From contig CAZLRP010000001.1 in assembly GCA_964562105.1 (NCBI GenBank), forward strand, positions 2,949 to 66,948: DNA of 64,000 nt, read 5' to 3'. This document shows, piece after piece, positions 26,755 through 33,627 of this stretch (its first letter is position 1; each line of letters opens with the position of its first letter). The position numbers were made by a program, and so were the translations under genes. Source of the stretch: an uncultured Candidatus Saccharibacteria bacterium (GTDB lineage: Bacteria; Patescibacteriota; Minisyncoccia; Phycocordibacterales; GWA1-40-21). The notes below the pieces were generated by a model. It was not told the origin of the DNA, did not search any database, and worked only from the letters and a program-made list of their open reading frames with translations.

Positions 26755-26851
26755 GTTTGCAAGTCCTCACGCAAGCAAAGACTTTTGCTTGCTTCCCGCG
26801 CATCAAAAATCAGCAAAAGCTGATTTTTGTGCACGGGAGAGGACTTGCACC
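26755..26851. ncRNA. about 100-nt multi-hairpin structured element (candidate small RNA or repeat)
   Basis: outer stem GCAAGTCCTC/GAGGACTTGC enclosing hairpins GCAAGCAAAGACTTTTGCTTGC and AAAATCAGCAAAAGCTGATTTT; the first hairpin recurs at 25132 and 51300. Confidence 0.35.
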
Positions 26852-26913
26852 TCCACGCCTTACGGCACAGGAACCTCAATCCTGCTTGGCTACTAATTAC
26901 AACACCCGTGCAT

Positions 26914-27597
26914 TCACTGTCTTCTATATTTTTTTTGCTGCCGTTTTTCCACACTTAATGCTTTCTCTATCTTTATCCTCTTTCTACCTAAGCAAACGAC
27001 TTTTCGATTATAATACATTGCCTTGATAATTTCTATAGCTTCTTTTTTGGCATATTTTAATTGTCCAGTTGACTTTTCTCCATCATTCGTGATGTGCCCA
27101 AAAACATTAATCCTGTTCGTTAACTCCGACCTCAACCAATTAATATGTTTCTTGCTCGCTGAAACAAACTCAACATAAAACATATGGCTTGAACGCCAAC
27201 GCGGATCCCAATACGAATAAAAAGTTCCGTCTCCATCAAAACAACCGCGTAAAAAATCAAAAAAATACTCTGATGGAATATCAACAACTCCTAAGCTTTT
27301 CGATTTTGCCCTGCTAATACCTATGGATTCTAAAAATTTGTAGAAAAAAATATCACTAAATTGCACTACATAATATTTCTTTTCTTTGTTTCCGCCGTTG
27401 CCTTTTTTGCCTACATTACATTTAATCCGTAATGCTTTTTGATAATTATCAATTTGTTCCTTGTCTTTGGAAGTAAAACTCACATGCCTACCATCTGGCG
27501 ATACGTTGCCATCAGTCGCAATCAAACCAATAGCATAAGCAAAATTCGGTGACCATGTTATTTTTACTTTTGCCTTTGGCTTTGGTCCTCTTTTCAT
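26914..27597 (-). CDS. LAGLIDADG homing endonuclease (two-motif, free-standing)
   Basis: YAIGLIATDGN and LRGCFDGDGTF LAGLIDADG motifs. Confidence 0.8.
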   Translation of the reverse strand: MKRGPKPKAKVKITWSPNFAYAIGLIATDGNVSPDGRHVSFTSKDKEQIDNYQKALRIKCNVGKKGNGGNKEKKYYVVQFSDIFFYKFLESIGISRAKSKSLGVVDIPSEYFFDFLRGCFDGDGTFYSYWDPRWRSSHMFYVEFVSASKKHINWLRSELTNRINVFGHITNDGEKSTGQLKYAKKEAIEIIKAMYYNRKVVCLGRKRIKIEKALSVEKRQQKKYRRQ

Positions 27598-27712
27598 ACT
27601 CCTTATTGTATCAAATAATATATTATACTCAAGGAAGTAGCGTCTACCAATTAAAATTCAAGCAAAAATCCGCCAAAGGCGGATTTTTGCTTGAATTAAA
27701 CTTTATAACTTT

Positions 27713-28123
27713 CTACTTTTCACTTTCAACTTTTCTAGTATCCGTATTGCTTTCAAGTCTCGCTCCCAAAAGTTCGCTCTTTAAATGTCTCTTAAGTTCT
27801 TTTGTGGCTTTCTCTCTAATATAATAAAGTTTTGATCTTCTCACTTTTGCTCTCTTCAAAATTTCTATTGAATCTATTACAGGTGAATATAATGGGAAAA
27901 TTCTTTCAACCCCCACTTCATCCACTACCCTTCTCACAGTGAAAGTTCCTCCGTTTTCTTTTCCATGTTTTACAGCCAAAATCATACCTTCAAATGCTTG
28001 GAGTCTAGTCTTGTCACCTTCTTGAATTTTCTGCCAAACACGAACGGTATCGCCTGATCTCATATCAATTTTTTTCCTAGCTTCTATATCTATTGGCGAT
28101 ATTTTAATATTTTTCAATTCCAT
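27713..28123 (-). CDS. rplS: 50S ribosomal protein L19
   Basis: GDTVRVWQKIQEGDKTRLQAFEGMILA...RRSKLYYIRE L19 pattern. Confidence 0.9.
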   Translation of the reverse strand: MELKNIKISPIDIEARKKIDMRSGDTVRVWQKIQEGDKTRLQAFEGMILAVKHGKENGGTFTVRRVVDEVGVERIFPLYSPVIDSIEILKRAKVRRSKLYYIREKATKELKRHLKSELLGARLESNTDTRKVESEK

Positions 28124-28178
28124 AATATCAACAAACTAACATAATAATATGCTTTTTGCAATCGTTTTTTTGTAACGA

Positions 28179-29186
28179 TTAATTAGAAACTGTAACGGTC
28201 ATATTTTGAACTTTTTTTCTCAATTTTTTAGCATTGCCATAAGACAGCAATCCTAGATACGATTGTACTGTTTCCATCTTACCTTCTTTGAGTTCAATAT
28301 TTTTAAACATTCTTCTTTTTGTGACAGTCCTTATCACACAGTGATCGGGAAAATGTACCCAACCGAGAAAATCAATACCTGAAGTCAGTGTTTTCAAAAA
28401 TAATTTATCTGGATGTAATGTAAGCCTCAATTCATTCCAAAGAAACTCATTGATTTTAGGTATTGTATTTTCTAGCCGAGTTTTGTCTTGCGATAAAACT
28501 ACAAAATCATCAGCATATCTTATGTAATATTTTGCTTTTAGTTTGTGCTTTATGAACTGATCAAATTCATTCATATAAATATTCACTAGAAGTTGTGATG
28601 TTAAATTTCCAAGTGGCAAACCCCTCCCTTTCTCGGTAGAGTAAAAACTATGAATAATTTCGGATAGTAAATTGATGATATCCCCATCTGGTATATATTT
28701 ATTTAATATTTTCAATAAAATTTTTTGGTCTATTGAAGCAAAAAATTTCTTTATATCACATTTTAGAACCCAGACTGTTTTTGTGTTATTTTTTGAAACT
28801 TTATTTGAAAAACTTTTAAATCTTCTTATAGCTTTATGGGTTCCTTTTCCTAATCTACAAGAATATGAATCGGCAATAAAAGTCTTATCAAAAAACGGGT
28901 ACAATTTTCTATAAAGAGCGTGGTGCAAAAGTCTATCTCTGATTTTTGCTTTATGTATATTTCTTGGTTTTGGATCAGAAATATTAAATGCTTCATATAA
29001 AGAATGTTTGTAGGTTTTATTTTTTAATTCCATATGAAGTAAAATAATATTTGTCATTAAATGTCTTTGAAATTCCTCCACATCCTTGCGAGACTTTTTA
29101 CCAACAACAAATTCCCTCCACGCCTCTAGCAGGTTTTCCATTTCAATGATATTCTCATAACTGTCAGTAAGTTGGATTTTAGACAT
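28179..29186 (-). CDS. diversity-generating retroelement (DGR) reverse transcriptase
   Basis: RT motifs including YADD (IRYADDFVV); the DGR-specific LGNLTSQ variant of motif 4; adjacent TR/VR pair. Confidence 0.85.
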   Translation of the reverse strand: MSKIQLTDSYENIIEMENLLEAWREFVVGKKSRKDVEEFQRHLMTNIILLHMELKNKTYKHSLYEAFNISDPKPRNIHKAKIRDRLLHHALYRKLYPFFDKTFIADSYSCRLGKGTHKAIRRFKSFSNKVSKNNTKTVWVLKCDIKKFFASIDQKILLKILNKYIPDGDIINLLSEIIHSFYSTEKGRGLPLGNLTSQLLVNIYMNEFDQFIKHKLKAKYYIRYADDFVVLSQDKTRLENTIPKINEFLWNELRLTLHPDKLFLKTLTSGIDFLGWVHFPDHCVIRTVTKRRMFKNIELKEGKMETVQSYLGLLSYGNAKKLRKKVQNMTVTVSN

Positions 29187-29229
29187 AATTATTAGACCAT
29201 AAAAAATTAAACTATGATGCCCCCCCCCC
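29187..29229. promoter_or_regulatory. 27-bp divergent spacer between the RT and avd starts, plus the C10/G10 homopolymeric tract
   Basis: RT ATG at 29186 (minus), avd ATGATG at 29214 (plus), C10 at 29220-29229. Confidence 0.5.
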
Positions 29230-29610
29230 GAACAAAGACAGAAATTATTACCGCTTTTACAAAAAGTAAAAACTGTTTATATTCTTTGGTATGAATATTA
29301 TCAAATATTACCCAAACCACACAGATATTCTCTTGGCAACAGAATTGATACCCTTTTTGTAGAAATAATAGAAGCAATATCCATAGCAAGTTTTTTGCCA
29401 AAAGAAGAAAAAAGAACTTACATATCTATCGCCATCAGAAAACTTGATACGTTAAAAATCCTAATAATGGTTCTTTGGGAAACAAAATCACTGGACAATA
29501 AAAAGTATATCGCCCTATCGCTTCATCTGGATGAAATCGGGAAAATGCTCGGCGGTTGGAACGGGCAAATATTAAAACAAAACTCTCCCGCAAAAGCAGG
29601 AGAGAAATGA
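29214..29610 (+). CDS. avd: Avd-like DGR accessory protein (four-helix bundle), frame interrupted by a C10 tract
   Basis: Translation ...YQILPKPHRYSLGNRIDTLFVEIIEAISIASF...LHLDEIGKMLGGWNGQILKQNSPAKAGEK resembles Bordetella phage bAvd as recalled from memory (no alignment was run), including its C-terminus; the ATGATG start joins this frame only if the C10 run is C9. Confidence 0.6.
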
Positions 29611-29616
29611 AAAGAG

Positions 29617-29745
29617 TTGTGAACGCCAGCAAACCGATAGTTATCGTTCCAGTCTTCATCAAACCAATTCAGGTTCAGCTTACGCCTGCTGTCGTTCTCG
29701 TTGAGGTAAGCCACGTTGCGGTTGCCGTTAAGCTTGCAGACAGAA
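29617..29745 (-). repeat. DGR template repeat (TR)
   Basis: Adenine-rich copy (AAC codons: NGNRN, NEND, NLN, NDN in the target frame), invariant partner of the VR. Confidence 0.85.
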
Positions 29746-29799
29746 ATGTGCAAAATACCGTCTATGCCACCATCCCTTGAATACTCTAAGGATTGAATC

Positions 29800-30039
29800 T
29801 TATTTGACATCGTAATGCCTTAATATATTGCACCAAGTATCTTCATTTTTTGTGAAGAGTCTACATAAGTCCTCTGTTTGAAACCTTAGTCGCAAACGCT
29901 CCCAACTTATGGATACTGGATTCGGCAGTGAGAAACCGTAATCGCTCACATATTCACCTAATACCGATTTTATTTTAGCATAAAAAAACAGCTCGTCTAT
30001 CTTTACTGCTTTCGCAGTTTGGATAAACGAGCCGTTCAA
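29800..30039 (-). CDS. small ORF between VR and TR (hypothetical)
   Basis: 79-aa ORF only; no motif. Confidence 0.2.
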   Translation of the reverse strand: MNGSFIQTAKAVKIDELFFYAKIKSVLGEYVSDYGFSLPNPVSISWERLRLRFQTEDLCRLFTKNEDTWCNILRHYDVK

Positions 30040-30103
30040 ATCGAAAGAACTAAGTTCAAAGTTTCAAAGTGCAAGTACACAGTGACACAAAACTAAGTTC
30101 TAA

Positions 30104-30697
30104 TTACTTGTGAACGCCAGCAAACCGATAGCGAGCGCGCCAGTCTTCAACAAACCAATCCAGGCTCAGCCTACGCCTGCTGCCGCTCTCGCTGAGGTAA
30201 GCCACGCGGCGGCGGCCGCAAAGCTTGCAGACAGAACCGAGAGCAACAATGGGGAATTTTCTCTGAAGGTTCGGCTCTTTGACAGAGAGACCTAAAAGGT
30301 CTTGGATTGTGGCAGGTTTGTAGCCAGCTTTGTCCATCTCGGCGATTGCATCTTTCGAGGAAATGCTTTTATTGAAGTGAAAAATCGCCACTTCCTTGTC
30401 TACTTTTTTGCCATCTTTCAGCTTAGGGAAGGTTTTGGAAGTGATGTCGTCGTTCGCCCAATCAAACTTACCGAGCTTAATCGCCTCTTCCACGGAAATG
30501 GTCTCGTCAACCGGAACCATAAAGGTGTGGGTGATGAAGTTGGTCATTTTCGTGATTTCCACTGGTGGACACAAAGCTTCCTTCAGAGTTTTTTGCAAAC
30601 CCTTGGGATTTTCTATCCATCCCTGCATGAGACTGCTGTCCATTTCGGGCAGATTTTCTGCGATGCTAGCTACCAACTTTGCTGTTTGCTTATCCAT
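30104..30697 (-). CDS. DGR target protein with C-terminal variable repeat
   Basis: C-terminal 39 codons are the VR; good RBS (AGGAGG) upstream; ends ...YRFAGVHK at the VR end. Confidence 0.8.
   Translation of the reverse strand: MDKQTAKLVASIAENLPEMDSSLMQGWIENPKGLQKTLKEALCPPVEITKMTNFITHTFMVPVDETISVEEAIKLGKFDWANDDITSKTFPKLKDGKKVDKEVAIFHFNKSISSKDAIAEMDKAGYKPATIQDLLGLSVKEPNLQRKFPIVALGSVCKLCGRRRVAYLSESGSRRRLSLDWFVEDWRARYRFAGVHK
30109..30225 (-). repeat. DGR variable repeat (VR) at the 3' end of the target gene
   Basis: Differs from TR only where TR has A; runs to the target gene's stop codon. Confidence 0.85.
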
Positions 30698-30699
30698 AG

Positions 30700-30925
30700 T
30701 GTTTTTTCCTCCTTTGATAAGGTTTTCACTATTTGCTTGGCTACTGTGTATATTTAATAGTCATAGCCAGAAGACCTCAATTTTTAAGAGCTTTTGGCTA
30801 TGACTATTTTGCAAGTATTTAAAAGAACCACCGGTAATAGTGTACACTGTTTGATATTTTTTGTCAAGATTTTTGAATTTGAAATTATTTTTTAATTTTA
30901 AACTTTATTTTTACTTTTTTCTCTT
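30700..30925. promoter_or_regulatory. upstream region of the DGR target gene with a 12-bp inverted repeat TAGTCATAGCCA...TGGCTATGACTA
   Basis: hairpin at 30758-30806 on the coding side upstream of the AGGAGG RBS. Confidence 0.35.
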
Positions 30926-31743
30926 TACTTTTTAAGTTTACTTATTGCTTCCTCAAAATCTTTCGGGTAAGGAGCGATAATGGTTAATATTTTTTTTGAA
31001 AGAAGATTTATTTCCAATTCTCTTGCATGAAGCGCCATTCTTTTAAATCCCAATTGTTGTTTTTTGTTCAAATAAAAATTCGTGGCATAAAGTTTATCTT
31101 GCACTATTGGATGATTTATAGCACTAAAATGAACTCTTATCTGATGCGTTCTACCGGTTTTTGGTATCGCTTCCACAAAAGTAATATCGTTTATTTTATT
31201 CAAAACTTTAAAATATGTTACGGCCTCACGCGCTTCGCCTCTAATACCTCTTTGGGCTGTCCATTTACGAAAATCAGTTGAGCTTCTGCCTATCGGCCTG
31301 TTTATCATTCCCCTTTCATCTTTGACGTCGCCATAAACAAAAGCCTGGTAAACTTTGCGAACCTTTCTGTCTTTAAATTGTTTTTTTAGAAATTCAAATG
31401 ATTCTTTGTTTTTTGCAATGATAAGAACACCGCTCGTATCTCTATCAATCCTGTGAACTATTCCCGGCCTCAATATTTTTTTACCCGCTAAAGTTTTGCC
31501 TGACGCATTGGACTTTTTGTCCAATGCACGGAAAATCTTGGATTTTCCATCAGGCAAAATTTTTTCGGGTGAACCATCATCAAGAATAATTGGTTCACCG
31601 ACATTTTTTATGCGAGGATATTTTTTCAAAATCCAATCTACCAAAGTTTTTTCCTTGGTTTTTCCATCAAAATGAACAACTAGACCGGCGGGCTTGTTTA
31701 TAATCACGACATCTTTATTTTCGTAGAGAATAGAGATTTTCAT
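30925..31743 (-). CDS. RluA family pseudouridine synthase
   Basis: HRIDRDTSGVLIIAK catalytic motif. Confidence 0.85.
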   Translation of the reverse strand: MKISILYENKDVVIINKPAGLVVHFDGKTKEKTLVDWILKKYPRIKNVGEPIILDDGSPEKILPDGKSKIFRALDKKSNASGKTLAGKKILRPGIVHRIDRDTSGVLIIAKNKESFEFLKKQFKDRKVRKVYQAFVYGDVKDERGMINRPIGRSSTDFRKWTAQRGIRGEAREAVTYFKVLNKINDITFVEAIPKTGRTHQIRVHFSAINHPIVQDKLYATNFYLNKKQQLGFKRMALHARELEINLLSKKILTIIAPYPKDFEEAISKLKK

Positions 31744-31753
31744 GGATAATAGA

Positions 31754-32671
31754 TTATTGATTTACAACATTTTTCAGCTTATTTTTAGTACAAGCGATAA
31801 TCGTATCTACCCAAACTCTCATATCCTCTTCAAACGCTTCCTTAGTAAACCACGCATTAGGAGGTGTAACCAAAACATTTCCTTTAAAATCTTCTGGATT
31901 TTGTTTTTCTGATTCAAAAGCAATACCAGCTAATTTTCCTTTATTAATTAATTGCAGAGCAGTTTCTAAATCAAATATATCATCGGCTGTAATACTGACA
32001 ATAAAAGAACCGTTTTTCATTTTATTCAGCTTTTGTTTATTGAGCATTCCTTTTGTTTGTTTATTTCTGACTAAACAAGGAAAAATAAAATCTGATTTCT
32101 GAAGAGTTTCGTCAAGAGATTTATAAACAAATCTCTTATCTCTGCTTTTTCTTGACCAATAAATAACATTCATTCCCATAGCTTTCCCCAACTCGGCGAT
32201 TCGTGTCCCAATTGAACCTAATCCGACAATTCCCATTGTTTTATCTTTTATTTCCCAACCTTGTTGTTTGTTATAATCAATCTTCCATTCGTTTTTAACA
32301 ACTAGAGATAATTTTCTAGCCACATTCAACATCAGAGAAATGGCATATTCGGCGACTGATTCAGTTGAATATTTTGGAACATTTGTTAAAACAATTCTTT
32401 TCTTTTTTGCATATTCTCCGTCTAGCCAACTAAAGCTAGTCGTGGGCAAACAAATAGCTTTGAGATTTTGAATACCAGAAATGTCAGTGTTTGAAAACTT
32501 CCAACCTACCACTTCCGGGCCAATAGCTATGATTTTTTCTTCGCTGCCCGTGAAAATCTTATCTTTGTAGTTTGGATTCTTTTCTATAAAAAATACCTCC
32601 CCAACTTTTTTTAGAGCATTAATTTGGTCTTTTGTAAAATCTTTTTTGGAATTGATAATAATTATACGCAT
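31754..32671 (-). CDS. D-isomer-specific 2-hydroxyacid dehydrogenase family protein
   Basis: GIVGLGSIGTRIA NAD-binding motif, 305 aa. Confidence 0.78.
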   Translation of the reverse strand: MRIIIINSKKDFTKDQINALKKVGEVFFIEKNPNYKDKIFTGSEEKIIAIGPEVVGWKFSNTDISGIQNLKAICLPTTSFSWLDGEYAKKKRIVLTNVPKYSTESVAEYAISLMLNVARKLSLVVKNEWKIDYNKQQGWEIKDKTMGIVGLGSIGTRIAELGKAMGMNVIYWSRKSRDKRFVYKSLDETLQKSDFIFPCLVRNKQTKGMLNKQKLNKMKNGSFIVSITADDIFDLETALQLINKGKLAGIAFESEKQNPEDFKGNVLVTPPNAWFTKEAFEEDMRVWVDTIIACTKNKLKNVVNQ

Positions 32672-32814: not shown

Positions 32815-32853
32815 CAAATTAGGAAACCGCTTTGAGGCAGTTTTTTATTTTTG

Positions 32854-32925
32854 TGCTCTCGGTTGGAATCGAACCAACATTGACGGCTTAGAAGTCCGCA
32901 GTTCTATCCATTGAACTACGAGAGC
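32854..32925 (-). tRNA. tRNA-Arg (anticodon TCT)
   Basis: cloverleaf; anticodon loop CTTCTAA; T-loop GGTTCGATTCC. Confidence 0.8.
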
Positions 32926-32928
32926 ATA

Positions 32929-33549
32929 CTATATTTTAAAATGTGCCAGCATACCTTTTTTCCATCCAATAATTTTTCTAAATAACTCTTTTGAATTTAT
33001 TACTATGGAGCATGTGCCTTCATAAAGAATATTTTTTCTGCTTTTTAAAGATGTTTTTTTGATATATAACTTGTGAAACTGCCTTTTATCTACGCCAGTA
33101 ATCTTTGACCAATAATCAGTAACTTCTGGAGAAGAATGCAAACTATGGATATGTAACGCTATTCTAAATTTACTTTCTTCTACGAGACAAACTTCTCTAA
33201 ACCATTTCATCATCAACTTAATCATATTGCTGTCAGAATTGGCAAATTTGACTCGCTCTTGTTTTTTATCACCTTCTGCCCAATAAAGCAACAATCCGGA
33301 TAAGAATAACTTATTATTTATAAGTTTTTTGAATTCTATTTCAGCTTTATCTATTATTATTTTTGTCCTATTAATCCTATCCGTCTTTCTTGACAAGGCG
33401 GCAAAATACCTTGATTTCTCTCTTCCTTTTAATATTTTGTCTAGATTTTTTTTACTGACTTCAATATCCCTTAACCAAAGACTTAGGGTGCTTTTTGAAA
33501 CATTGACAACTTTAAGGATATTGCCGTAGGATTTACCAGATTTTCTCAT
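32929..33549 (-). CDS. HTH-containing protein with single LAGLIDADG-like motif (possible homing endonuclease relative)
   Basis: N-terminal HTH (SYGNILKVVNVSKSTLSLWLRD) and GLLLYWAEGDK motif; immediately downstream of tRNA-Arg. Confidence 0.4.
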   Translation of the reverse strand: MRKSGKSYGNILKVVNVSKSTLSLWLRDIEVSKKNLDKILKGREKSRYFAALSRKTDRINRTKIIIDKAEIEFKKLINNKLFLSGLLLYWAEGDKKQERVKFANSDSNMIKLMMKWFREVCLVEESKFRIALHIHSLHSSPEVTDYWSKITGVDKRQFHKLYIKKTSLKSRKNILYEGTCSIVINSKELFRKIIGWKKGMLAHFKI

Positions 33550-33627
33550 TTTTATCGCCAAAATTTTCTCGTCGTATTTCACGCATATAATTATAGAATA
33601 ATGTATTAGAAAATACAACAATCTATT

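Follow-up and report, generated by a model that had tools for sequence, protein, structure and literature searches.

The window, by which we mean the whole 64,000-nt stretch analysed here (GCA_964562105.1, contig CAZLRP010000001.1, positions 2,949-66,948, from an uncultured Candidatus Saccharibacteria bacterium), contains a complete chromosomal diversity-generating retroelement (DGR) of the kind typical for Patescibacteria (CPR), situated between the housekeeping gene rplS and an rluA-like gene. Read along the minus strand, the element comprises a target gene with a C-terminal VR, an RNA gene that carries the template (TR), avd on the opposite strand, and the reverse transcriptase (RT) gene. 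The first-pass annotation had called the element complete, and the RT, the Avd homology, an exact adenine-only substitution pattern and a modelled lectin fold all agree with that call. A second assembly (Logan contig L001, run SRR13007705) matches the window at 100% over 5517 bp, including a run of ten C's in avd; both the VR and this C10 run are the same in two assemblies of two sequencing runs, which belong to one study.

The RT gene (28179-29186, minus strand) encodes an intact protein of 335 aa with LGNLTSQ and YADD motifs. Compared with solved structures, its best relative is the Bordetella phage bRT (8ub7, E 2e-42), with residues 11-314 aligned across IGSLTSQ/LGNLTSQ and YxDD; group II intron RTs follow at E values of about 1e-19 to 1e-20, Cas6-RT-Cas1, Drt3a and other solved RTs are weaker than these, and retron RTs reach 1e-4 or worse. 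The protein scores 90.5 bits on Pfam RVT_1 and 142 bits on the NCBIfam group II model, whose cut-off is 300; NCBIfam holds no DGR-RT model. At least 8000 homologues are found at E <= 1e-20, the named ones all from Patescibacteria, and identities to thousands of Patescibacteria RTs range from 62 to 83%. The initial assignment to the DGR type, as opposed to the group II or retron types, is thus borne out by the intact motifs and by bRT as the closest solved relative.

The avd gene (29214-29610, plus strand) is frame-shifted as assembled, and three-frame translation together with profile matches points to an Avd homologue. With one C removed from the run, leaving nine, the product scores 43.6 bits on Pfam bAvd PF22296 and so passes that model's cut-off of 40; NCBIfam DivGenRetAVD, whose cut-off is 80, gives it 67.5 bits (E 1e-18). 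A sequence search of solved structures did not reach bAvd. An Avd-like protein behind a repaired frame, as first proposed, is consistent with these scores.

The target gene (30104-30697, minus strand) encodes 197 aa, with an N-terminal helical region and a compact domain at about residues 55-197 that models as a C-type-lectin fold, a scaffold tolerant of variation; the first-pass annotation had proposed modelling the C-terminus for such a fold. Its family has 87 members, all small lectin-fold proteins without a known domain, and can be compared with other DGR targets that have C-type-lectin folds, such as Mtd, TvpA (2y3c), Lcl/DUF1566-like and FGE-like proteins. Upstream of the gene, a consensus scan alone gives a candidate promoter-like site (TTGACA-17-TACACT, 10/12 matches, 30839-30867, minus strand).

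The final 43 codons of the target form the VR (30108-30236, minus strand), a 129-bp repeat of the TR (29617-29745, minus strand), and the two copies are offset by 491 bp. The first-pass coordinates for the TR are exact, while those for the VR (30109-30225, 39 codons) fell slightly short. In the realigned pair there are 18 mismatches, and in all of them the TR base is T on the plus strand, that is, A on the coding minus strand; the probability that 18 of 18 mismatches fall by chance on 36 A's among 129 positions is 2e-12. The restriction to template adenines noticed at first sight therefore holds. Half of the 36 TR adenines are altered in the VR (G at 11 sites, C at 5 and T at 2), and all of these sites fall on the first or second position of a codon in the target ORF. 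In the target frame the TR contains eight AAC codons and one AAT, which brings the Asn codons to nine rather than the eight counted originally. No further TR copy, with any base permitted at the A positions, occurs across the 64-kb window. The same pattern appears in relatives: between near-identical strains, VR differences lie on TR-adenine sites in 13/14, 12/12 and 17/17 cases, and in relatives sharing one RT protein the VRs differ between samples.

The final 24 nt of the VR match the TR exactly, despite the adenines in that stretch. The stretch 29960-30130 (minus strand), which spans the VR end, has a predicted fold with a z-score of -6.2. Within it, an imperfect, A+T-rich hairpin (30046-30101, minus strand) begins 6 nt past the VR end and may correspond to the hairpin that other DGRs carry behind their IMH. 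Beyond it, a predicted terminator-like structure (29982-30036, minus strand), with a 15-bp stem around CUGC-GAAA-GCAG and then a U7 run, is probably the end of the target transcript; a T-run stands at the same place in the alignment of relatives.

The start of avd (ATGATG at 29214) lies 27 nt from the RT start on the opposite strand, in agreement with the first description of the locus. That description also regarded the layout as unusual, which does not hold: Wu et al. 2018 (NAR, PMC5758913) describe TR-(avd)-RT with a reverse-strand avd as 'architecture B3', which makes up 90% of their CPR DGR set, and among the 153 related loci that have sufficient upstream DNA, avd and RT are divergent in 151. 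The window fits this architecture, with avd between TR and RT on the opposite strand and the target upstream, and it shares the gene order, strands, host group and small domain-less target of the B3 elements; its layout is no different, and it is a member. Read along the RT strand, 88 of 98 distinct loci have the VR ahead of the TR, and the median distance from the TR end to the RT is 404 nt. CPR DGRs are also treated by Paul et al. 2017 (Nat Microbiol) and as 'DGR clade 2' by Roux et al. 2021 (PMC8144416). Within the CPR DGR literature covered here, including PMC5758913 and PMC8144416, a repeat in avd, a head-to-head overlap of avd and RT and structured RNA around the TR go unmentioned. Within that same scope, the avd repeat tract and the structured TR RNA look like new features, although Paul et al. 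2017 may hold an earlier description.

The TR is preceded by a structured non-coding domain (29746-29965, minus strand), which is conserved and would form the 5′ part of a TR RNA. Its helices include P1 (29948-29929), P2 (29911-29864) and a long-range P3 (29833-29748) that encloses P3a (29819-29806) and P3b (29793-29772), and it contains an invariant AAAAATGAAGATACTTGGT box. The DNA of this domain is 70-83% identical across related loci, and translated matches to a 79-aa ORF break frame. RNAalifold finds 48 pairs, with compensatory changes in 43. Moreover, 95.1% of alignment cells pair, compared with 79.0% in shuffles (0 of 500 as high) and 35-55% in slid controls, and double-sided changes number 746 against 199. 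Rfam has no relevant family for 27000-32000 (E <= 1) or for 29560-30010 (E <= 10), and none of its RT-associated motifs RT-1 to RT-19, including the BPP-1 DGR motif RT-10, gives a match.

Both ends of this RNA can be proposed from conserved elements. An extended -10 box (ATGCTAAAAT, 29972-29981, minus strand; consensus TGnTAnAAT) stands out as conserved columns in an 81-sequence alignment of relatives and coincides with a promoter-scan match at 29999-29972, making it the probable promoter of the TR RNA. Downstream, 13 nt past the TR and antisense to the final avd codons, a terminator scan locates the hairpin CUCUCCUGC-UUUU-GCGGGAGAG followed by UUUUGUUUU (29574-29604, minus strand), which is conserved in relatives. 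A perfect stem of at least 6 bp with a T-run occurs at this place in 101 of 125 distinct relatives, and stem positions 4-9 pair above all 1000 shuffles, with CG/UA/GC/AU exchanges. The hairpin may act as an intrinsic terminator for the TR RNA, or else RT/Avd may use it as a handle; we infer that it would terminate the RNA and that the 5′ domain would bind RT/Avd. Because a covarying hairpin and U-run lie so close to the TR end, the TR RNA is probably a separate short transcript, and the earlier contention that a TR-to-RT transcript must run antisense through avd becomes doubtful. Scans downstream of the hairpin gave no convincing RT promoter; should the hairpin terminate efficiently, the expression of the RT would lack an explanation.

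The poly-C tract (29220-29229; C10 when read with avd, G10 when read with the RT), which the first-pass annotation had left to a finding of its own, tells more about the element than any other part. It is the only C or G run of at least 7 in the window, whose G+C content is 34%. In three-frame translation, ATGATG and C10 are in one frame and the Avd body (from 29230) is in another. A tract of 9 or 12 C's would give back an Avd of 131/132 aa, and C10 leaves the Avd body out of frame; the body itself contains no stop codon and no second frameshift. By its sequence, the C10 of the window reads as an OFF allele.

Comparison of about 150 related elements suggests that the avd repeat is a reversible, phase-variable on/off switch on mutagenesis. 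Of 151 relatives, 140 have a repeat at the 5′ end of avd: it is a poly-C of 6-14 (mode 10) in 123 loci, and a dinucleotide, tetranucleotide or heptanucleotide repeat in 7, 8 and 2 loci, respectively. Units of 3 or 6 are absent from all 140 repeat-bearing loci. For most loci, avd begins on the antisense of RT codon 8, which reads CAT 49 times and CAC once, compared with 626:356 for His codons elsewhere in the RTs. Starting at the conserved ATG, the leader frame runs without a stop as far as the repeat in 77 of 78 loci, compared with 9/78 and 5/78 for the control frames, and the Avd body past the repeat is in phase 0, 1 or 2 in 18, 28 and 31 loci. Since the window's own avd start is the ATGATG immediately 5′ of the tract, and not the antisense of RT codon 8, the leader argument applies to it by analogy only.

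Tract length also varies at the DNA level. Among relatives with the same RT protein and identical flanks, tracts differ as C10/11/12, C8/9/10/11, C8/10/11, C9/6, C11/10 and C11/8, and a (GCCA) tract gains or loses one unit; in total, 7 of 12 identical-flank groups differ in tract length. These variants yield both full-length (134-141 aa) and truncated Avd alleles. Relatives free of repeats keep avd in frame: in the same clade, an in-frame ATG is present in 4 of 5 repeat-free lineages, and a sister clade with the same layout has eight repeat-free loci, of which all 7 that were checked have one. Among relatives, 23-31% are ON, the share expected of random frames, which taken alone does not show selection on the frame. 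Overall, we infer that tract length would control the level of Avd and hence the activity of the DGR.

In these respects the tract resembles the simple-sequence-repeat contingency loci of phase variation in Neisseria, Haemophilus, Campylobacter and, lately, phages T2/T4 (e.g. PMC5084427, PMC6321876, PMC11868660, PMC12633550). The shared traits are a G/C homopolymer of about 8-12 or a repeat of 2-, 4- or 7-nt units just inside the 5′ end of the coding sequence, units that shift the frame, tract lengths that vary among near-identical genomes, and the coexistence of ON and OFF alleles, here in relatives. The known genes mostly encode surface structures or restriction-modification enzymes, whereas the gene putatively gated here is a cofactor of a targeted mutator; one mutational switch would thus control another diversification system.

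Expression could instead be leaky, with RNA polymerase slippage or ribosomal frameshifting on the C-run supplying, at any tract length in the DNA, a constant low amount of Avd and the tract acting as an attenuator of Avd and mutagenesis. Runs of 9-11 identical bases are known to be long enough for transcriptional slippage (e.g. PMC5009743), the three Avd phases are about equally frequent in relatives, and VRs vary between samples even under an OFF consensus. Indeed, populations of relatives whose consensus is OFF still hold unique VRs, an observation that switching and leaky transcriptional slippage fit equally well. We nevertheless judge a purely leaky tract unlikely: 17 loci carry di-, tetra- or heptanucleotide repeats, which classically undergo slippage in DNA but lend themselves poorly to polymerase stuttering, and the tract length varies in the DNA of otherwise identical sequences. 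The two processes do not exclude each other.

That the window's element is dying, with avd a frameshifted pseudogene and the VR differences relics of past activity, is still less probable. Such decay would agree with an avd that is out of frame as assembled and with a single VR in two sequencing runs; however, nothing but the length of the tract is altered, and the clade at large both conserves this tract and is polymorphic for it, the RT, TR, target ORF, RNA helices and hairpin are all intact, the Avd body has acquired neither a stop codon nor an extra frameshift, and many relatives with an OFF consensus show recent VR turnover.

We give slightly less credence again to an effect on the RT side, in which the repeat, 13-33 nt upstream of the RT start codon, tunes the start of RT transcription or translation and not the avd frame. 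The tract does usually end 13-16 nt before the RT start codon, adjoining the ribosome-binding site, and 41 of 130 distinct loci have, on the RT strand and 2-9 nt ahead of the tract, a TGnNAnnAN box that could act as an extended -10 (44 have the box within 40 nt). Yet the box is missing from two thirds of the loci and is accounted for by conserved Leu-Pro-Val codons of avd, and the repeats share no base composition on the RT strand (G, TG, CT, CTGG, TTGG, ATTG and others). Further, the lack of 3- and 6-nt units, the leader frame open in 77/78 loci and the CAT bias of 49:1 point to a function in the reading frame; the tract may act on both the avd frame and the RT. Finally, it is scarcely credible that C10 is a homopolymer error of sequencing or assembly and avd truly intact, because, error-prone as some platforms are on homopolymers, an independent assembly of another run has the same C10 within 5517 identical bases, and similar tracts in all three phases, multi-base units included, occur in 140/151 loci from many studies and assemblers.

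We therefore return to the gating of Avd by replication slippage, and consider it probable that the locus is a CPR DGR with a dedicated TR RNA and a repeat-gated Avd. In this account, an RNA of roughly 390 nt would start from the conserved extended -10 box and comprise three parts: a structured 5′ domain (about 220 nt), the TR (129 nt) and the hairpin with its U-run. The RT and Avd would copy the TR into cDNA, misincorporating opposite adenines, and the cDNA would replace the VR, so that up to 36 positions could be recoded within the final 43 codons of the small target and its C-type-lectin fold. A hypermutable repeat a few codons past the avd start would gate the production of Avd: replication slippage would alter the tract length, move the Avd body in or out of frame, and thereby turn mutagenesis on or off heritably, reversibly and at random within the population. 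For the window, C10 would place Avd out of frame (OFF), and C9 or C12 would be ON. With somewhat more reserve, we favour extending this account to a very large clade of Patescibacteria DGRs, in which avd overlaps the RT start head-to-head, as a heritable, reversible random switch on hypermutation. It would be coupled to an uncatalogued structured TR RNA gene (promoter, eight-helix 5′ domain, TR and terminator hairpin), such that at any one time a subpopulation alone would diversify its lectin-like protein, and the window copy would be caught OFF, one slippage from ON.

The DGR of Bordetella phage BPP-1 (mtd-avd-TR-brt) shares with the window the adenine-specific transfer from TR to VR, a homologous RT (bRT, E 2e-42), an Avd homologue (frame-shifted as assembled in the window), a target whose C-terminal VR lies in a C-type-lectin fold, modelled in the window, and, putatively, a VR 3′ end that stays invariant. 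We know of no repeat tract in the BPP-1 avd. The BPP-1 parts are all on one strand, whereas the window's avd is inverted. Moreover, the RNA elements that BPP-1 needs for priming are located in the avd 3′ end and the TR-brt spacer (RT-10 motif, Weinberg et al. 2017, PMC5737381), whereas the window's structured RNA is 5′ of the TR, and 3′ of the TR there is just a hairpin and U-run.

The RNA elements that flank the TR are thus arranged unlike those of the Bordetella phage prototype. To our knowledge, the CPR class of DGRs has never been reconstituted, and the conserved structured TR RNA offers a defined substrate for its biochemistry. The 87-member lectin-fold family, in turn, offers a compact scaffold that protein engineering may be able to exploit. 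If avd is repeat-gated, this would likewise account for the frequent absence or truncation of the gene in automatic annotations of CPR genomes; among the relatives, gene calls give avd fragments of 74-114 aa or no avd at all. DGRs are unusually common in CPR bacteria, and uncontrolled mutagenesis of a functional protein should carry a cost, above all in their tiny genomes. To the question of how DGRs are regulated, a repeat-gated avd, if true, would provide a simple answer, limiting mutagenesis to a random and reversible fraction of cells and adding bet-hedging on top of targeted diversification.

All defining parts of a diversity-generating retroelement (DGR) are present, since a pair of template and variable repeats (TR and VR), a reverse transcriptase (RT), a homologue of the accessory protein Avd and a target gene were all identified, with the accessory gene avd out of frame as assembled. 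In particular, a repeat search of the window recovered two 129-bp copies on the minus strand, offset by 491 bp, at 29617-29745 and 30108-30236, the latter forming the last 43 codons of a 197-aa ORF (30104-30697, minus strand). Their alignment contains 18 mismatches, all at a T on the plus strand of the first copy, equivalent to an A on its minus strand; the chance of all 18 landing on adenines is about 2e-12. Half of this copy's adenines (18 of 36) are altered, 11 to G, 5 to C and 2 to T, and every change falls at codon position 1 or 2 of the target ORF. Because the mismatches are restricted to adenines and to these codon positions, and because the second copy lies inside an ORF, 29617-29745 is the TR and 30108-30236 is the VR. 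The first-pass annotation had placed the VR at 30109-30225, which is slightly short; the rest of its description of the pair is correct, including the restriction of mismatches to TR adenines, which realignment reproduced. No further VR was found on either strand within the 64-kb window, and the consensus VR was the same in two sequencing runs.

The RT (28179-29186, minus strand) is an intact 335-aa protein with a Pfam RVT_1 domain and the LGNLTSQ and YADD motifs. In a search of solved structures, its nearest relative was the Bordetella phage DGR RT (8ub7; E 2e-42), compared to E values of about 1e-19 to 1e-20 for group II intron RTs and 1e-4 or worse for retron RTs, which upholds its earlier assignment to the DGR type. 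The avd gene (plus strand) starts at an ATGATG 27 nt from the RT start, followed by ten C's and then a 127-codon open frame in another frame; three-frame translation with 9 or 12 C's yields a protein of 131 or 132 aa. This repaired Avd scores 43.6 bits on Pfam bAvd (cut-off 40) and E 1e-18 on the NCBI Avd model, in agreement with the proposal that 29214-29610 encodes an Avd-like product, while a sequence search of the same protein against solved structures did not reach bAvd and returned matches at chance level only. Overall, the DGR call is correct and well supported.

Profile searches of Pfam and NCBIfam found no domain in the target, whose C-terminus carries the VR. Its family comprises 87 small proteins with a conserved core followed by a variable C-terminus, none of which (0/87) has a Pfam domain. 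Comparison of the modelled target fold returned the Bdellovibrio Bd2740 fibre-tip domain (9.5), LYVE-1 (8.1), many CTLDs (6.5-8), an FGE paralogue (7.1), the Legionella Lcl C-terminal domain (7.1) and Treponema TvpA, a DGR target (6.4).

The divergent orientation of avd had been described as an unusual layout, a view that its relatives overturn. The comparison set comprised 80 loci taken from species-representative genomes and another 80 from metagenomes, with RTs 60-78% identical to the window RT, together with contigs containing identical copies of four related RTs. Of the 153 loci that extend 200 nt or more upstream, 151 have avd immediately upstream of the RT and encoded on the other strand. 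An adenine-biased TR/VR pair occurs in 88 of the 98 distinct loci with enough sequence; wherever the pair is present, the VR precedes the TR on the RT strand, and the TR ends a median of 404 nt before the RT. This is the TR-(avd)-RT arrangement that Wu et al. 2018 named architecture B3 and found in 90% of their candidate-phyla (CPR) DGRs (PMC5758913). The orientation marked as unusual is thus the norm among CPR bacteria, and the window element is a new member of this described class. The target gene and TR-RNA region (29550-30750) has a G+C content of 40-50%, versus 27-32% in the RT gene and 34% in the whole window.

Apart from the ten C's within avd, the window contains no stretch of 7 or more consecutive C's or G's; the same ten C's are also present in a second, independent assembly. 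A repeat occupies the same avd site in 140 of 151 relatives: poly-C in 123 loci (6-14 long, with a mode of 10), a dinucleotide (CA or AG) in 7, a tetranucleotide (GCCA, AACC, CAAT, ACGA and others) in 8 and a heptanucleotide in 2. Repeat units of 3 or 6 were found in none of these 151 relatives.

That the repeat lies within the avd coding sequence follows from several observations. Most loci have a His at RT codon 8, encoded by CAT, whose antisense is ATG, in 49 and by CAC in 1; across the remaining His codons in these RTs the counts are 626 CAT and 356 CAC. Read from the antisense ATG of RT codon 8, the leader frame reaches the repeat without a stop in 77 of 78 distinct loci, versus 9/78 and 5/78 for two control frames over the same stretch. 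Further, 4 of 5 repeat-free lineages of the same clade have an uninterrupted avd, whose in-frame ATG lies at the RT start or overlaps it, with Pro codons at the tract position. It is because of this CAT bias, the open leader frame and the in-frame avd of repeat-free relatives that the repeat is read as coding. A sister DGR group (L195-L203, IMG/VR contigs; RTs 43-60% identical) served as the repeat-free control; it was obtained from a scan of putatively viral IMG/VR contigs that yielded no close relatives with the repeat. It has the same TR-(avd)-RT layout, with avd adjoining or overlapping the RT start, no repeat in 8 of 9 loci and avd in frame in all 7 checked.

Downstream of the repeat, 18, 28 and 31 loci have the Avd body in phase 0, 1 and 2, respectively. 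Taken together, these comparisons indicate that a frame-shifting, length-polymorphic repeat interrupts avd throughout the clade. The window copy, whose avd leader is the ATGATG only and whose tract of 10 puts Avd out of frame, is an OFF allele; one C fewer or two more would restore the frame, and a locked-ON recoding of the tract would be CCACCGCCT. Near-identical flanks surround different units at the same avd 5′ site, namely (AACC)n, (CAAT)n, (ACGA)n, (AGCC)n/(CAGC)n and (GCCA)n, in seven loci (L016, L021, L026, L036, L039, L012 and L108). The sequence of the repeat turns over, with its position and frame-shifting unit size kept.

Tract lengths also differ between loci that share an RT protein or identical flanks. 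They are C11, 10, 12, 11, 11 and 11 in RT protein group P0061; C11, 8, 9, 9, 9, 9, 11, 9 and 10 in P0114; C8, 11, 10, 11 and 11 in P0096; C9 and C6 in the pair L087/L089; C11 and C8 in L047/L125; and 41 and 45 nt of GCCA repeat in L012/L108. The pair L018/L105 has C11 and C10, with one substitution across 2180 bp. Five other groups with the same RT or identical flanks have no tract-length difference. The in-frame alleles of a group encode an Avd of 134-141 aa, and its remaining alleles end after 18-57 codons. The tract is far more mutable than its surroundings and has the anatomy of a contingency locus, which suggests phase-variable mutagenesis. One RT protein (P0022, from Hainich groundwater and Logan assemblies) was seen in two contexts: with a normal avd and TR upstream (L087 and L089), and joined from about codon 4 to unrelated sequence (GCTACCCGAACCCCCGAATCC...) with no avd (L088, L090-L094), the second resulting either from a deletion or rearrangement or from chimeric assembly at the repeat.

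In near-identical strain pairs, 13/14, 12/12 and 17/17 of the VR differences lie at TR-adenine sites, which points to an active DGR clade. Samples with one shared RT protein also have different VRs, even where the consensus tract puts Avd out of frame; VR turnover under an OFF consensus fits frequent switching and the production of some Avd through polymerase slippage equally well. In one locus (L181), the VR (530-626) is 3 nt shorter than the TR, with the gap at adenine positions, matching the AAC-associated in-frame indels reported by Wu et al. 2018 (PMC5758913).

Moreover, the TR itself appears to lie within a conserved, covarying RNA gene absent from Rfam. The VR is followed by a hairpin and then a terminator-like stem-loop with a U7 run (predicted fold, z -6.2). 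Beyond it, an alignment of 81 relatives has a conserved extended -10 box, TGnTAnAAT (29981-29972, minus strand), and a 5′ domain of about 220 nt between box and TR, whose DNA is 70-83% identical across relatives. A 79-aa ORF here (29800-30039, minus strand) was considered as a second accessory gene but discarded, since it runs across both the terminator-like stem-loop of the target and the promoter-like box of the TR RNA and has no family matches. Because translated matches to it break frame in relatives despite the conserved DNA, the 5′ domain is non-coding. A 95-aa ORF containing the TR likewise has no family matches and was taken as a TR by-product.

RNAalifold gives the 5′ domain 48 base pairs in eight helices, 43 of them with compensatory changes. 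Standard pairs form in 95.1% of alignment cells, versus 79.0% when shuffled (0/500 shuffles reach the observed value), and 746 cells are changed on both sides, versus 199; sliding the 3′ partners by 1-3 columns lowers pairing to 35-55%. One helix pairs the region just 3′ of an invariant AAAAATGAAGATACTTGGT box with the 20 nt immediately before the TR. The evidence for structure is covariation and not energy, because the fold of the 421-nt TR RNA region alone is unexceptional (z -1.26). On the other side, 13 nt after the TR (minus strand), a 9-bp stem is followed by UUUUGUUUU; the stem is perfect in 101 of 125 distinct relatives, and its positions 4-9 covary beyond all 1000 shuffles. The box, the structured 5′ domain and this hairpin together argue that the TR would form the 3′ portion of its own RNA, which is about 390 nt long, probably terminates at the hairpin and has a 5′ domain that may recruit RT or Avd. 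Rfam searches of the locus returned no match to the TR RNA or to the hairpin, and this covers the RT-associated motifs described by Weinberg et al. 2017. Among those motifs, RT-10 is the BPP-1 spacer RNA (PMC5737381); the structured domain is 3′ of the TR in BPP-1, whereas here it is 5′. At 29574-29610, the same DNA is a protein tail on one strand and an RNA structure on the other: the last 11 or so avd codons (KQNSPAKAGEK), a tail kept in relatives, are the complement of the post-TR hairpin and its U-run. This antisense encoding accounts for the conserved Avd tail ...KQNSPxxxGEK.

A promoter scan of the window and a check for the box in relatives found no convincing RT promoter. An extended -10 beside the repeat on the RT strand is unsupported, because just 44 of 130 distinct loci have it and avd codons account for it. 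Elsewhere in the window, two stand-alone ORFs, both about 230 aa long, each directly adjoin a tRNA gene (26829-27597 and 32853-33621): one at 26914-27597 beside tRNA-Leu (26829-26911), with a weak LAGLIDADG_3 match in the precomputed annotation of the independently assembled Logan contig L001, and one at 32929-33621 beside tRNA-Arg (32853-32925). Both may be homing-endonuclease-like genes.

Neither the avd repeat nor the structured TR RNA was found described in the literature covered, which did not include Paul et al. 2017 or a preprint from 2026. In two sets of related loci (L083-L086 and L175-L194), automatic gene calls omit avd or shorten it to 74-114 aa, a consequence of the repeat and of avd overlapping the RT start. 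Surveys built on called proteins will therefore under-count or shorten Avd in CPR DGRs.
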